Positions 7,335 to 63,680 of a stretch of 64,000 nt of DNA are shown in pieces. The notes below the pieces were generated by a model. That model did no database searches. It was not told where the DNA came from and worked only from the letters and a program-made list of their open reading frames with translations. Numbering within the stretch: the stretch's first letter is position 1; each line of letters starts with the position of its first letter. The translations under genes were made by a program, and so were the position numbers. The stretch comes from Acidimicrobiaceae bacterium (lineage in GTDB: Bacteria; Actinomycetota; Acidimicrobiia; Acidimicrobiales; UBA8190): NCBI GenBank assembly GCA_003151475.1, contig PLXQ01000018.1, forward strand, positions 1-64,000, read 5' to 3'.

Positions 7335-8081
7335 TCAGCCCGACGGTGTTGTGGGGGCGGCGGCCATGGGCAGCGACGCAAAGGTCACGGTGCTCGTCGG
7401 TACCGGAATCTGCAGCGCCTTGCCCCAGTTGCTGAACGTCCCGACGTCGGTTTCCTTCACGCCGCGCGAGGTCTGCTCGGCCGAGAAGACGATTGGCACC
7501 GTCGGGCTCGACGTCGAAACGTACAGGGTCGACGAGCCCGTCGCCCCCTTGGCCGCCCCCGGGAGCCCGCCCTTCACCCCAATGACCGCCTGTCCGGCCT
7601 TGGTCGTCGACGCCGTAAGGACCAGGTGGCCGCCGGGCTTGATCTGGGTCAGCGTGCTGGCGATGGTCACGGCCTTGGTCACCGACGCGTACGGGGCGTC
7701 GGTGGTGGCGATGGAGATCCACTTACCGGCGTAGGTCGCGGCGTTGGCAGCGGAGAGCCCGATCTGGCCCTCGAGGCCCCCGGCGTTTCCCTCGATGAAG
7801 GCCTTTCCCCCGATCACCTCGGCCTGGATGGTGACGGCACCCACGCTGATGATCTCCCGGCCGTCGCTGCCCGAGGCATCACCGGTGATGGTCTCCGTCT
7901 TTCCCGACTGCTTCCCGAGCAGCTTGAAGTGGACCGATCCGGCCGTCTTGGCCGCGGCCAGAGAGGCGGTCAGGATCTGCTTCGGGCTCTGGCCGGCCAG
8001 GGCGTTGGTCGACCCTCCCCCGCCGCAGGCGGCAGCAACGAGGGCCAGTGGTCCGAGAACGAGGAGGGCGGTGCGCTTCAT
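7335..8081 (-). CDS. Putative secreted lipoprotein (LppX/LprAFG-like size and composition)
   Basis: Signal peptide with lipobox MKRTALLVLGPLALVAAAC-GGGGS (L-A-A-C), followed by a Gly/Ala/Thr-rich mature domain. Confidence 0.6.
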   Translation of the reverse strand: MKRTALLVLGPLALVAAACGGGGSTNALAGQSPKQILTASLAAAKTAGSVHFKLLGKQSGKTETITGDASGSDGREIISVGAVTIQAEVIGGKAFIEGNAGGLEGQIGLSAANAATYAGKWISIATTDAPYASVTKAVTIASTLTQIKPGGHLVLTASTTKAGQAVIGVKGGLPGAAKGATGSSTLYVSTSSPTVPIVFSAEQTSRGVKETDVGTFSNWGKALQIPVPTSTVTFASLPMAAAPTTPSG

Positions 8082-8110
8082 TCGGCCACGCTACCGGTCA
8101 TACCTGAGCG

Positions 8111-8497
8111 TCAAATGGCGCGGGGCTCCATCGTCGGTGTCTTTTTTGTTTCGTCCGAGACCGGCTCGAAGTCGATGATGAGCTCGGCGCCGAGGGCCCG
8201 GGCGATCCGGTCGAGACTGATGACCGTGGGCGACACCTGGCCCTTTTCGAGCCGGGCGATGGACGGCTGAGAGGTCTTGGCCCGTCGGGCCAGCTCCGCC
8301 TGGCTCACCCCGCTGCGCAGCCGGGCGGCCCGTACGGCGCTTCCCACCATGATGGCCGTCCGGGCCCGCTCGTAGCGGGCGAAGGCGTCCTCTCCCCTGC
8401 TGGGTCCGGGTCGGGGCGGAACGACCGGTGACTCCCCCGGCCGGGTTCTCCGGGTCGTTTGCCCACCAGGGGGCGCGGGATTGGTCGAGCGAGCCAT
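8111..8497 (-). CDS. XRE-family helix-turn-helix transcriptional regulator
   Basis: HTH_3 motif GVSQAELARRAKTSQPSIARLEKGQVSPTVISLDRIARALG. Second ATG (8497) chosen because the first ATG (8518) sits inside an AT-rich promoter-like stretch. Confidence 0.7.
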   Translation of the reverse strand: MARSTNPAPPGGQTTRRTRPGESPVVPPRPGPSRGEDAFARYERARTAIMVGSAVRAARLRSGVSQAELARRAKTSQPSIARLEKGQVSPTVISLDRIARALGAELIIDFEPVSDETKKTPTMEPRAI

Positions 8498-8523
8498 ATC
8501 AAAGATGGAATATACCATTTATG

Positions 8524-8566
8524 GTCTGAGGATCTGAGGATCTGAGGATCTGAGGATCTGAGGATG
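8524..8566. repeat. Tandem 8-bp repeat (gatctgag / tgaggatc) x5 in the divergent intergenic region
   Basis: Read directly: atggtc tgaggatc tgaggatc tgaggatc tgaggatc tgaggatg. It sits between the XRE regulator (minus) and the Kelch-Ig protein gene (plus). Confidence 0.9.
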
Positions 8567-8780
8567 CTCGGGTCGCCCTCCGGGGTAATCCGAGATATCC
8601 AGCCACCGAGAGGCATCTCGTCACTTATGACAATAGTGATGGGGTGGCCACGCTGCGTAAAATAATCCCTGATGCGCGCCTTGCCACGTGCGACGGGGTT
8701 GTCCAGGTTGGAGTCCCTTCACCGAGCAGGAGCAGGCGAGGGGCTGGCCTGAGGAATCCGGGTCCGTCCCGGGGGGAGAT

Positions 8781-11219
8781 ATGCGGAGACGCAGGCGGGG
8801 GACGGCACCGGACGGAGCCAGGGAAGACAACCTTGCCTGGGATCGGGCAGCGGTAAAGCCCCGAACGCTCGGTACCACTCTCCGCAGGCCGCTGTCCGTA
8901 ACGGTCGTCGTCTGGACGATATTGGCGGGTCTTGCGGGGCTGGGACCGTCGGGTACCACCACGGCCTCGGCGCTCTCGTTGACCCCGAATTGGCTGGAAC
9001 TGTCCCCGTCGACAAGCCCGCCAGGGCGGACTTCGGCGTCCATGGCCTATGACCCGGCGACCGGAGACACGGTGCTGTTCGGTGGGGCCGAGATCACGAG
9101 TGGCCCCGCCATCATGCTGTCCGACACCTGGACCTGGGATGGTTCGACCTGGACCGAGCAGTTTCCGTCCGCCAGCCCCCCTGCTCTGTACGGAGCCTCC
9201 CTCGCCTACGACGATGCCACGAACGACCTGGTCCTCTTTGGCGGTCTTTCCGACACCGGCGACATGTCCGAAACCTGGACTTGGAACGGAATCACATGGA
9301 CACAGCAGGTGTCGACTACCACTCCGCCCGTCCCGGTGCCGACGGCGCGTCACTCCGCCGCCATGGCCTACGACCACGTGGCAGGCCAACTGGTTCTGTT
9401 CGGAGGCCTGGATGGCCGGACGATTCTGAACGATACCTGGACATGGAACGGGACCACCTGGACACAGCAGCACCCCGCCACGAAGCCGACGGCACGTTAC
9501 GCCGCCTCCATGGCCTACGACCCAGCGATGGGAAACGCAGTGCTGTTCGGTGGCTATAGCGGCGGACAGACCGGCCTGTCAGACACGTGGACATGGAATG
9601 GAACAACCTGGTCACTGCAGAACCCGGCGATCATCCCCCCCGCTCGCTACGGAGCCTCGATGGCCTACGACCCCCTCCAAAGCGAAATCGTTCTTTTTGG
9701 CGGCTACGACAACGGTGCCAGCGACCTGTCGGATATGTGGACCTGGGATGGCACCAAGTGGGTACCGCGGTCGCCGACCACGAAACCCCCGGCTCGACGT
9801 TTTGCCGCCATGGACTACGACGCGGCGACGGCGAACCTGGTGCTTTTCGGGGGTGATCCGGGCGGTAGCGGCACTCCCGGTTCGCTGGACGACACCTGGA
9901 TTTGGGGATCCGGTGGCGCGTTCACTGATTCGGTCGCCCTCCCGAGCGTCATCCTCGGCGCTACCGACACCGCCACGGCCGCGGTGACCGGAGACGCCGG
10001 AGCTGCGGTCCCGACGGGCACCGTCAGGTTCTATGCCTGCGGCCCGACACCCACTCCGACGTCGTGTGAATCTCAAGCCAACCCTTTGGGCGCTCCGGTC
10101 AGCTTGAGTCCGATATCGAGCGATACCGCCGCAGCCATGTCGTCGGCTTTGAACCCGACGTCTACCGGCTATTGGTGCGTTGCCGCTGACTATTCGGGCG
10201 ACGCCAACTATGCCTTCGGTTCGGATACCACGACCGACGCGTGCTTCTTCGTAGAGCCACCGGTAGTCACCACACCTGCTGTGTCGACGGTCAGCCTCGG
10301 AAGTACCGACAACGACAATGCCACTGTGTTCGGAACGACGGCCGACGGTGCTCCGACGGGCACGGTCTCCTTCTACGATTGCGGTCCGACCGTCGTTCCG
10401 ACCTCCTGTACATCACAGACCAGCCCGGTCGGCGCACCGATCAGCCTGACGCCGGGACCAGGCGACACATCCACGGCGACGTCGCCCGGCTTTACCCCCA
10501 ACGCGCTCGGATATTGGTGCTTTGCCGGCGTGTATTCGGGTGACAGCAACTACGCGCCAGCATCCGACGCAACGACCGAAGAATGCATTCTCGTGACGGC
10601 CGTCTTTTCTTCTGTGTCCACCCTTTCCTCGATCAGTCTTGGGACCTCAGATACGGACGTGGCGACAGCGACCGGCAATGTCGGGTCAGCGACTCCTACG
10701 GGCACCGTCAGTTTCTACGAATGCGGGCCGAGTGCGACCCCTCTACCGTGTACATCAACGGTCAGCTCGATCGGCAGCCCGGTCACTCTGATACAGGGGC
10801 CAGCCAACACCGCCAAAGCGACGTCGCCCGCCTTTACCCCCAACGCAGTGGGCATCTGGTGCTTCGCTGCTGATTATTCTGGCGATGGCAACTACCCGCA
10901 AGGCTCTGACACCACCACCGACCAGTGTTTCAACGTGATTGACACTCTGCCGGCCTTTACGAGCGCCGGCTCGGCATCAGCCACTGCCAAACAGCCCTTC
11001 ACGTTCACCATCACAACGACCGGGTCGCCGACCGTGACAATCGTGAATTCTGGCGCCCGGAAGAAGTGGTTGGTGTTCGCCGACAATCACAACGGAACGG
11101 CCACGATAGATTCCAAAGCCGCGCGCACGGGCAAGCATGTGTTCACCTTCACGGCCACCAACGGTGCCGGTTCGGTCAACCAGACCTTCGTCCTTACGGT
11201 CCGTAAGGCAGGGGGATAG
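8781..11219 (+). CDS. Secreted Kelch-repeat protein with three tandem Ig-like repeats and a C-terminal He_PIG-like domain
   Basis: ATG 8781 preceded by GGGGGGAG; signal/TM LSVTVVVWTILAGLAGLG..ASA. Six Kelch blades (repeated DTWTWDG/NG..W, LFGG motifs). Three ~114-aa repeats each carry TGTVxFYxCGP...YWCFA..YSGDxNY. The C-terminal FTFTITTTGSPTVTIV...NGTATI...FTFTATNGAGSVNQTFVLTV resembles the putative Ig (He_PIG) domain. Confidence 0.8.
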   Translation: MRRRRRGTAPDGAREDNLAWDRAAVKPRTLGTTLRRPLSVTVVVWTILAGLAGLGPSGTTTASALSLTPNWLELSPSTSPPGRTSASMAYDPATGDTVLFGGAEITSGPAIMLSDTWTWDGSTWTEQFPSASPPALYGASLAYDDATNDLVLFGGLSDTGDMSETWTWNGITWTQQVSTTTPPVPVPTARHSAAMAYDHVAGQLVLFGGLDGRTILNDTWTWNGTTWTQQHPATKPTARYAASMAYDPAMGNAVLFGGYSGGQTGLSDTWTWNGTTWSLQNPAIIPPARYGASMAYDPLQSEIVLFGGYDNGASDLSDMWTWDGTKWVPRSPTTKPPARRFAAMDYDAATANLVLFGGDPGGSGTPGSLDDTWIWGSGGAFTDSVALPSVILGATDTATAAVTGDAGAAVPTGTVRFYACGPTPTPTSCESQANPLGAPVSLSPISSDTAAAMSSALNPTSTGYWCVAADYSGDANYAFGSDTTTDACFFVEPPVVTTPAVSTVSLGSTDNDNATVFGTTADGAPTGTVSFYDCGPTVVPTSCTSQTSPVGAPISLTPGPGDTSTATSPGFTPNALGYWCFAGVYSGDSNYAPASDATTEECILVTAVFSSVSTLSSISLGTSDTDVATATGNVGSATPTGTVSFYECGPSATPLPCTSTVSSIGSPVTLIQGPANTAKATSPAFTPNAVGIWCFAADYSGDGNYPQGSDTTTDQCFNVIDTLPAFTSAGSASATAKQPFTFTITTTGSPTVTIVNSGARKKWLVFADNHNGTATIDSKAARTGKHVFTFTATNGAGSVNQTFVLTVRKAGG
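9940..10965 (+). repeat. Three tandem ~342-bp coding repeats (Ig-like domain repeats) inside the Kelch protein gene
   Basis: Repeated protein blocks ...TGTVRFYACGP..., ...TGTVSFYDCGP..., ...TGTVSFYECGP..., each ending in YSGDxNY...SDxTTDxC. The nucleotide similarity is visible, e.g. recurring ctattggtgc / tattcgggcgac segments. Confidence 0.7.
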
Positions 11220-47344: not shown

Positions 47345-48681
47345 GAGCCGCTCCCCGCGCCGTCACCGGCCAGGTGGGCGAGATGGTCGGCGAAGGCCCG
47401 GTAGCTGGTGACGACGGACTCGAAGCCCGAGATCCGTGACGGCCCCGCGGTGTCGGCCGTGGTGTCGGCCACGGCGGCGGCGATGGCGCCGGCCATGGCC
47501 ATCCGGTGGTCCCCGCCGGCGTCGAAGTTCCCCGGCGACAGAGACGGTGATCCGTGCACCACCAGATCGTCGCCCTCGGTATCGGCCGATCCGCCGAAGG
47601 CCCGCACCAGAGCGACCACGGCCGAAAGGCGGTCCGACTCCTTCACCCGCAGCTCGCCCACGCCCGAGAAGACGCTCGTGCCCTTGGCGCAGGCGGCGGC
47701 CACGGCCAGCACAGGCACCTCGTCGAGGCCGGTGATCTCGGACGCGTCCACGGCGGCGGCCCGAAGCGGCCCGAAGCGGGCCCGCAGGGTGGCGGTGGCG
47801 GCCAGGGAACGGGCGCCGGTCTCGGGCTGCTCTTCGATGTCGGCTCCCATACGCCGGAGAACATCGAGATAACCCCGCCGTCCCGGACCCACGTAGACGC
47901 TCGGCACCGTGATATCGCTGCCCGCCACGACGCAGCCGGCCACCATCCAGAAAGCGGCCTGGGACGGGTCACCGGGGATGTCGATCTCGAAGGGCCGCAG
48001 GGCACTGGCCCGCAGTCGCACTACGTGGGTGCCATCGTCGCCGTCCTCGACGGTCATGTCGGCCCCGCAGAGCGCCAACATCTCCTCGGTGTGGAGCCGG
48101 GTGGCCACCCGCTCGCGCACGACCGTCTCCCCCTCGGCGCGCAGCGCGGCCAGCAAGACGCACGATTTCACCTGGGCGCTGGCCATGGGCGGGCTGTAGT
48201 CGATCCCGTGAAGTGCCCCGCCGTGGATGGTGAGAGGCGGCAGCACCCTCGCCCCGGTCCCGTGCACCTCCGCCCCCATCAGCCGCAACGGGATGGCCAC
48301 CCGGTCCATCGGCCGCGTCGACAGGGAGGCGTCGCCCCCCATCACCACGGTGAAGTCCCAGCCGGCCACGAGCCCGGCCAGCAGCCGGATGGTGGTGCCG
48401 GAATTGCCGACGTCCAGCGGACCCGACGGCGCCTTCATCCGGTCGGGCCCCCCGGTGATCCGCTCCCCGTTCATCTCGGCGCCGAGGGCGGCGATGGCGG
48501 CCGCCGTCCGCTGCACGTCGTCGCCGTCGGACAGCCCCCGCACGACCGATGTCCCGTCGGCCACGGCGGCCAGCAGAAGCGCCCGGTGCGAGATCGACTT
48601 GTCACCGGGGACGGTGACCGTGCCCGTGAGGGGCCGACCCCCGGCCACGAGGAGGACGGACTCCGGTGGCTTCTCTGTCAT
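47341..48681 (-). CDS. aroA: 3-phosphoshikimate 1-carboxyvinyltransferase (EPSP synthase)
   Basis: LDVGNSGTTIRLL and other EPSP synthase motifs. Start placed at the last of four repeat-encoded Mets (MTEKPPESV, ATG 48681); Mets at 48699, 48717 and 48735 are alternatives. Confidence 0.9.
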   Translation of the reverse strand: MTEKPPESVLLVAGGRPLTGTVTVPGDKSISHRALLLAAVADGTSVVRGLSDGDDVQRTAAAIAALGAEMNGERITGGPDRMKAPSGPLDVGNSGTTIRLLAGLVAGWDFTVVMGGDASLSTRPMDRVAIPLRLMGAEVHGTGARVLPPLTIHGGALHGIDYSPPMASAQVKSCVLLAALRAEGETVVRERVATRLHTEEMLALCGADMTVEDGDDGTHVVRLRASALRPFEIDIPGDPSQAAFWMVAGCVVAGSDITVPSVYVGPGRRGYLDVLRRMGADIEEQPETGARSLAATATLRARFGPLRAAAVDASEITGLDEVPVLAVAAACAKGTSVFSGVGELRVKESDRLSAVVALVRAFGGSADTEGDDLVVHGSPSLSPGNFDAGGDHRMAMAGAIAAAVADTTADTAGPSRISGFESVVTSYRAFADHLAHLAGDGAGSGS

Positions 48682-48749
48682 TGGAGGTTGCGGGGTCATT
48701 GGAGGTTGCGGGGTCATTGGAGGTTGCGGGGTCATTGGAGGTTGCGGGC
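48678..48749. repeat. Tandem 18-bp repeat x4 (tcattggaggttgcgggg) at the tyrA 3' end / aroA 5' end
   Basis: Read directly at 48678..48749. On the coding (minus) strand each unit is ATGACCCCGCAACCTCCA, encoding MTPQPP in the aroA frame. Confidence 0.9.
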
Positions 48750-63589: not shown

Positions 63590-63595
63590 ATGATA

Positions 63596-63611
63596 GCGAA
63601 CATCTGTTCGA
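63596..63611. promoter_or_regulatory. LexA operator (actinobacterial Cheo/SOS box) gCGAAC-ATCT-GTTCGA
   Basis: Matches TCGAAC-N4-GTTCGA at 11 of 12 positions. It lies 7 nt upstream of the radical SAM start inside a roughly 50-bp AT-rich stretch (63611..63660) with -10-like hexamers on the minus strand (TAAATGATATAGAT). Confidence 0.6.
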
Positions 63612-63680
63612 TACTGTATCTGATCTATATCATTTATGATCGATATCTGAAGTGGTATCGCATCTCGAGCTCGAAAGCGA

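Follow-up and report, generated by a model that had tools for sequence, protein, structure and literature searches.

In host-adapted pathogens, repeats close to promoters are well known to generate heritable differences in expression through changes in their copy number. To our knowledge, there is hardly any record of such repeats among Actinomycetota that live free in soil or peat. In Haemophilus influenzae, the divergent fimbrial promoters of hifA and hifB carry TA repeats between the -35 and -10 elements, and the number of units sets the spacing. Mycobacterial intergenic variable-number tandem repeats (VNTRs), among them the mycobacterial interspersed repetitive units (MIRUs), which are 40-100 bp long and often belong to dispersed families, mark lineages while remaining polymorphic in copy number, and some reportedly affect the expression of flanking genes. 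In Neisseria meningitidis, a TAAA tract upstream of the core promoter of nadA acts through the spacing of distal elements; repressor operators flank this tract, an IHF site has been mapped, the tracts are longer than the one described here, and switching has been measured (PMC2791445). The promoter repeats of H. influenzae hmw1A and hmw2A have 7-bp units, and in biogroup aegyptius the octanucleotide GCATCATC is repeated 12-15 times; these tracts, of at least 12 units, lie inside the adhesin gene's own promoter or leader, and graded expression has been established by experiment (PMC3309571, PMC8262952). Here we describe an octanucleotide tandem array in a 64,000-nucleotide stretch of an Acidimicrobiaceae genome (contig PLXQ01000018.1, hereafter the window), located between divergent genes for an XRE-family regulator and a Kelch-Ig protein. 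The locus is a fresh example of a known polymorphism type in an unusual organism, an uncultured peat member of the Acidimicrobiales. We consider it probable that the array is a slippage-made, lineage-marking VNTR in unconstrained junction DNA, with an effect that is nil or a modest graded change in the output of the XRE promoter.

A polymorphic octamer array between divergent genes

The array and the two genes that it separates are as follows.
8525..8565, no strand assigned: octanucleotide tandem array, TCTGAGGA repeated 5.1 times (TCCTCAGA on the XRE strand), at -68..-28 from the XRE ATG, identified with Tandem Repeats Finder (TRF)
8111..8497, minus strand: XRE-family (Cro/CI HTH_3) regulator gene, 128 amino acids, with an invariant ATG at 8497, from Pfam and orthologues
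8781..11219, plus strand: gene of a protein with a Kelch beta-propeller and Ig-like (Big_3_5) domains, 812 amino acids, from Pfam and orthologues

The array has a period of 8 nt and 100% matches over its 5.1 copies of TCTGAGGA, and the sequence of 8520..8570 can be written tatggTCTGAGGA(x5)Tgctc. An initial inspection of the DNA without database searches (the sequence-only reading) had described a five-fold 8-bp repeat with four GATC sites, about 25 bp from the XRE gene and about 215 bp from the Kelch gene, and this description holds well. In the register gatctgag there are four perfect units and one mismatched unit (ggtctgag), GATC occurs at 8531, 8539, 8547 and 8555, and the gaps measure 27 nt to the XRE ATG (8497) and 216 nt to the Kelch ATG (8781). 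Because each unit junction reads GA|TC, these four sites come with the unit sequence itself, and for this reason a reading as Dam-dependent phase variation of the pap/agn43 type was set aside. The window as a whole shows no avoidance of GATC (405 sites observed against 362 expected).

As a short-unit perfect tandem tract in intergenic DNA, the array has the form seen in phase-variable (contingency) promoter loci that depend on simple sequence repeats. No other perfect array with a period of 4-12 reaches 4 copies in the 64-kb window. In a second-order Markov simulation, 2 of 40 windows held any perfect array of that class, whose members can be as short as 16 nt. For the 41-nt perfect run itself, the estimated expectation is ~1e-14 per window, making a chance origin effectively impossible. 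Among the other loci fetched for this analysis, the unit was found in tandem only in the allelic L034 and in the later-fetched contigs of the same allele (clone B, below). A small open reading frame starting from an ATG at 8563, just past the array, was considered and rejected, as indels in a related lineage (lineage A, below) break its frame.

The orthologous intergenic region of other strains was obtained by looking up the XRE and Kelch clusters by exact protein, with same-species contigs from ENA, JGI, the NCBI metagenome-assembled genomes (MAGs) GCA_003167615.1 and GCA_003135715.1, and Logan assemblies. A comparison of copy number among strains had been proposed by the sequence-only reading as a check, and the number does vary, with 1, 2 and 5 units in three lineages of one species that are 97-99% identical. 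Lineage A (L001, L035 and L063, from three ENA samples) has 1 unit and a flank of its own, TGCACGGGTCGCCGCGCCCTCC, and is 97.3% identical to the window, gaps aside. Clone B (L034 and L057-L062, from ENA, JGI, NCBI and Logan) has 2 units and a flank of the window type. Its contigs are mutually 100% identical over up to 5.2 kb, and at least 7 assemblies all carry 2 units; for this clone the index reports 24 contigs read, from 30 collection blocks. The window allele, with 5 units, was seen once. Array length therefore differs in every pair of distinguishable lineages and is stable within them (1 unit in the 3 samples of lineage A, 2 in clone B, 5 in the window), which is the behaviour of a VNTR.

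Over 3.16 kb, the window and clone B differ by 24 substitutions and by two indels only, the 24-nt array difference and a single T. Since one of these only two indels is the array difference, the array stands out as a local mutational hot spot. Within clone B, the array is invariant at the consensus level, and rapid switching of the 2-unit allele is unlikely. High-frequency switching is thus not demonstrated by these alleles, because copy number is fixed within lineages, as the identical assemblies of clone B illustrate.

Further searches for alleles added little. A metagenome scan with the flanking pattern returned other species only, plus a duplicate of L001, and look-ups with P0247, with the 812-amino-acid Kelch protein and with the 248-amino-acid protein of the XRE-adjacent gene returned nothing or short contigs ending inside the XRE gene. 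The multi-contig sets of XRE homologues, P0035 and P0059, are each clonal and identical and hold no information on upstream instability. One contig of clone B shows a separate peculiarity: the last 34 nt of L034 (1..34) diverge wholly from the window within the Kelch coding region, which could mean that the contig end is chimeric or that the Kelch repeats have been rearranged internally.

Conserved blocks on either side of the array

On the XRE side, the array borders a conserved block that contains a candidate promoter.
8495..8528, minus strand: conserved XRE upstream block, -31..+3, from position counts in 28 species-level loci
8509..8517, minus strand: extended -10-like element TGGTATATT (TGnTATAnT), -20..-12, from position counts in the same 28 loci

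The XRE protein matches HTH_3 in Pfam (PF01381, E 3.3e-12, residues 55-104), which identifies it as an XRE / Cro-CI helix-turn-helix protein, and in NCBIfam and PDB it has generic helix-turn-helix matches only. A scan of species-representative genomes with this protein found 25 loci at 69-88% identity, all in Acidimicrobiaceae/Acidimicrobiales MAGs. An in-frame ATG at 8518 was weighed as the XRE start and discarded, most orthologues having an in-frame TAG or no start codon at that place.

We anchored the 28 species-level loci on the invariant XRE ATG and counted bases position by position. The block consists of (T/C)AGACCA at -31..-25, G at -19 (28 of 28 loci), TATA at -17..-14 (27-28 of 28), T at -12 (26 of 28) and CATCTTTGATATG at -10..+3. 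The positions -12..+3 served to find the sites, so that conservation there is partly by construction, while -31..-13 were not used. Among the 28 loci there is neither a conserved -35 element upstream of the XRE gene nor any conservation upstream of -31. A scan of 8050..8900 for sigma-70 and terminator consensus sequences gave no match, a scan that demands a -35 element and is blind to an extended -10. Judging from this pattern of conservation, the block is likely the core promoter and operator of the XRE gene, with TGnTATAnT as the putative promoter. It probably doubles as an operator because it contains two CCAT..TG.TAT half-repeats, 16 nt apart. The XRE-proximal 14-mer, in the downstream part of the block, is unique in the window.

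These coordinates fix the place of the array. It starts 10 bp upstream of the -10 hexamer. The last 3-4 nt of its final unit, (C)AGA, form the upstream edge of the block, and the remainder lies in the unconstrained zone. Past two units, the promoter-adjacent sequence is constant, and each added unit shifts the distal DNA by 8 bp. According to the sequence-only reading, gain or loss of units would change the -35/-10 spacing. The 28 loci speak against this proposal: because the tract lies at -68..-28, upstream of the extended -10, and there is no conserved -35, the array is not in a -35/-10 spacer. Unit number here sets neither such a spacing nor the phasing of a mapped operator, as it would in a contingency promoter.

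Three further observations concern the XRE block. Its DNA at -31..+3 is far more conserved among the 28 Acidimicrobiales loci than the N-terminus of the XRE protein. One clade (L008, L009, L036 and L046) has a separate TTGCAA-N17-TATTGT promoter upstream of the block. On the minus strand at 63626..63641, in the AT-rich intergenic DNA of 63590..63680, GATCATAAATGATATA closely resembles a segment of the XRE promoter, GACCATAAATGGTATA (8511..8526), with ~0.04 matches expected by chance for a pattern defined post hoc. It adjoins a LexA-box-like CGAACATCTGTTCG (63597..63610) upstream of a putative radical-SAM gene, recognized by sequence motifs, and a common promoter type or regulator may serve both sites.

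On the other side, the array is followed by junction DNA and by a module that includes the Kelch gene, beyond which lies an aldolase gene.
8566..8614, no strand assigned: non-conserved junction DNA, from the alignment of 4 alleles, with no counterpart in L055 or L056
8615..8666, plus strand: portable Kelch upstream block ATCTCGTCAYTTATGACAATAGTGAT...CCACKCTGCGTAMAMTAAT, from the alignment with L055 and L056
11328..12164, plus strand: class II aldolase gene (ATG 11386) with the conserved upstream sequence GGTCGTAGACTT, from Pfam (PF00596) and relatives

The domains of the Kelch protein, like those of the XRE protein, agree with the identities that the two genes had first been given. Further features of the protein are an Arg-rich N-terminus and a hydrophobic segment of the anchor or signal kind. 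Its orthologues in L055 (75% amino acid identity) and L056 (68%) lie in unrelated neighbourhoods, with no XRE gene and no array. Both keep the start, ATGCGGAGACGCAGG, and a nearly invariant block of ~50 nt (2050..2105 in L055, ~2840..2900 in L056) with a -10-like hexamer TACAAT/TAAAAT. In the window, this block contains an inverted repeat (8621..8639), the palindrome GTCACTTATGAC (8620..8631), which is perfect in the orthologues (GTCATTTATGAC), and a -10-like TAAAAT (8658..8663). Because orthologues in unrelated contexts keep both the block and the start codon context, 8615..8666 reads as the Kelch gene's own portable control region. An Rfam scan of 8300..9000 gave sub-threshold chance matches only, and no family for the Kelch block.

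The inverted repeat TCACT-N9-AGTGA had been noticed in the sequence-only reading and proposed as an operator for the XRE protein. It exists, at 8621..8639, 3 bases to the left of the position first given (8624..8642). Its role as an XRE operator is possible and unsupported, since it is part of the portable Kelch block and unlike the XRE-proximal element. The palindrome pattern TCATNNWTGA, a candidate operator shared by the XRE and Kelch genes, matched at neither window site. With this pattern unmatched at both sites and the XRE-proximal 14-mer unique in the window, no connection emerges between the Kelch block and the XRE element.

The array ends 49 bp short of the Kelch block, and the junction DNA between them is without counterpart in either set of relatives. 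Between strains, the junction shows a net 3-nt length difference at ~8568-8580 and a 2-nt CA indel of slippage type at 8604. In most relatives, the XRE gene has the aldolase gene (MSITVEEL...) immediately next to it in divergent orientation; in the window, the aldolase gene and its conserved upstream GGTCGTAGACTT are found beyond the Kelch gene. Because the aldolase gene directly adjoins the XRE gene in most relatives, the Kelch module is a lineage-specific insertion between the XRE and aldolase promoters. A link between the repeat and Kelch expression, suggested at first, is weakened accordingly by an inserted gene that has its own block and by orthologues that keep this block with neither an XRE gene nor a repeat.

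The Kelch gene also varies among strains. Over the whole gene, the window and lineage A differ non-synonymously at 32 codons and synonymously at 49, and the substitutions cluster at 10000..11000 (Kelch codons ~540-720), in the Ig-like region, where their density reaches 25 per 250 nt, compared with 2-4 in other parts. This cluster could be a recombination tract, or result from relaxed or diversifying selection.

Origin and possible effects of the array

In the explanation we favour, an 8-nt sequence that is single in the simplest allele (TCCTCAGA on the XRE strand) would have been multiplied by slipped-strand replication into the present array, between the core promoter/operator block of an XRE gene that is widely conserved in the Acidimicrobiales and the Kelch module inserted alongside in this species. 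The outcome would be a slowly evolving repeat polymorphism, with 1, 2 or 5 units between lineages and a fixed number within them. Because the putative extended -10 promoter has no conserved -35 and the array starts 10 bp upstream of the hexamer, extra units would leave the core promoter spacing unaffected. Repeat sequence would take the place of the nominal -35 and upstream region, and each unit would displace the distal DNA, including the Kelch promoter block, by 8 bp (~0.76 helical turn). Most probably, this either has no consequence or alters XRE transcription in a modest, graded way; it would not act as an on/off control of the Kelch protein.

Several points weigh against this explanation. 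Only three distinguishable lineages were found, and the 5-unit allele comes from a single source. Minority length variants are invisible in consensus assemblies, which leaves room for rapid switching of the 5-unit allele. The XRE promoter and its transcription start are placed by conservation alone. Going from 1 to 5 units lengthens the DNA by 32 bp, near three helical turns, which would keep helix-face relations and could be non-random. Moreover, independent duplications in two other species end at the same promoter border as the octamer array: in L002 (3923..3977), a 19-nt unit repeated 2.9 times copies CCAGACCAT, part of the XRE block, and in L033 (1226..1297), a 35-nt unit repeated 2.1 times copies the whole upstream half-repeat. 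Such border-ending duplications hint at selection or a site-specific mechanism over pure neutrality.

The main rival to a stable VNTR makes use of these duplications. The tract might tune the XRE gene by setting how far, and at what helical phase, an upstream site stands from the core promoter and operator block, or by altering upstream DNA contacts, much as the nadA TAAA tract or the hmw 7-bp repeats do. It would then have been kept because niches differ in the XRE level that suits them. The array abuts the conserved block and fills the nominal -35 and upstream region, the duplications of L002 and L033 end at its border, and the mechanism has a precedent (PMC2791445). Arrays with a TRF score of at least 80 occur at 0.035 per kb over the 285 kb of fetched loci, and 3 fall in the ~2.8-4.2 kb upstream of XRE promoters. 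A Poisson estimate for three arrays gives ~5e-4 against all sequence, but weakens to ~0.03-0.08 against a worst-case, intergenic-only background, and it includes the window, itself chosen for its array. We regard the enrichment at the XRE promoter border as suggestive, not established. The region beyond -31 is, however, unconserved in the family, and the upstream partner site is only hypothetical; tuning of this kind is a tentative proposal, and we hold it to be rather unlikely.

A wider form of the argument is that border duplication is recurrent and selected, with units of 8, 19 and 35 nt in three Acidimicrobiales species and a repeat number that resets the level of the regulator. This we find more doubtful still. 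Tight binding of a protein at the XRE block may also provoke replication slippage alongside. If selection were the cause, uncultured free-living peat actinobacteria would be changing repeat number beside the promoter of a conserved transcription factor to set its level anew in a heritable way, and contingency-type mechanisms would then extend beyond host-adapted pathogens.

The sequence-only reading had favoured a contingency locus, in which slippage alters promoter or operator spacing and switches the Kelch-Ig protein (and the XRE regulator) on and off at high frequency. A perfect repeat whose period is not a multiple of 3, lying between divergent genes and differing in copy number between close strains, is what such a locus would show. 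The Kelch protein is probably secreted or anchored, its Ig-like region is its most strain-variable part, and the octanucleotide promoter repeats upstream of Haemophilus adhesin genes are a precedent (PMC3309571). Against this, the array is outside the -35/-10 of an XRE promoter with no conserved -35 and stops 49 bp before a self-contained Kelch block, which orthologues retain with neither repeat nor XRE neighbour. The tract reaches 5 units at most, the assemblies of clone B are identical at 2 units, and single-copy alleles, unable to slip, exist. Taken together, these features render high-frequency switching of the Kelch protein improbable.

Multiplication of a partial operator is a fainter prospect. 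Each unit junction makes CAGATCC, like the AGAYCA edge of the block, and might add weak sites for a block-binding protein; relatives have AGACCA or AGATCA at that position, and the duplications of L002 and L033 copy this element. The unit contains just 3-4 nt of the conserved element, however, the likeness of AGATCC to AGAYCA is short and was noticed post hoc, and the binding protein is hypothetical, so that we give this account very little weight. An assembly or sequencing artefact is hardly credible: the 5-unit allele is found in the window alone, and contigs with the window's own proteins and flanking DNA were not retrieved, but the 41-nt tract is well within read length, its units are perfect and in register, and the 2-unit allele occurs on the same flanking haplotype in many independent assemblies made with different assemblers.

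Elsewhere in the window, on the minus strand at 48677..48748, there is a perfect tandem array of an 18-nt unit repeated 4.0 times, CCCGCAACCTCCAATGAC. The ATGA in which the stop of an upstream gene (ending ...ARNLQ*) overlaps the start of the EPSP synthase gene is part of what is duplicated. As the unit equals 6 codons, there are four in-frame ATGs from which translation of aroA could start, and its N-terminus would have up to three MTPQPP repeats, depending on which of them is used.

Comparison with known repeat loci

At present, the octamer array stands as an ordinary repeat polymorphism, most useful as a marker of strains in this Acidimicrobiales population. It also offers a clean natural allelic series of 1, 2 and 5 units next to a regulator promoter that is deeply conserved, and is thereby directly testable, and the locus points to an unusually conserved XRE promoter/operator element and to a portable Kelch upstream block.

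Set beside the described systems, the locus shares features with each of them and coincides with none. Like MIRU loci, it is an actinobacterial intergenic tandem repeat that is lineage-stable and strain-polymorphic, but it consists of a unique 8-bp unit at a single locus. With hifA and hifB it has in common a divergent gene pair and a repeat in the shared intergenic region, whereas its array lies outside the promoter spacer, as the position counts in 28 loci indicate. The hmw genes resemble it in having heptamer or octamer tandem units upstream of a large surface protein gene, with a strain-variable copy number; in contrast to theirs, the array here is short and lies outside the conserved upstream block of the Kelch gene. 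As in nadA, a simple repeat is located upstream of the core promoter and outside it, additional units would shift distal elements, and a repressor-type regulator is encoded nearby. The Acidimicrobiales locus differs from nadA in its 8-nt unit, in having at most 5 units, in that the adjacent gene is the regulator itself, and in being known from its sequence alone.

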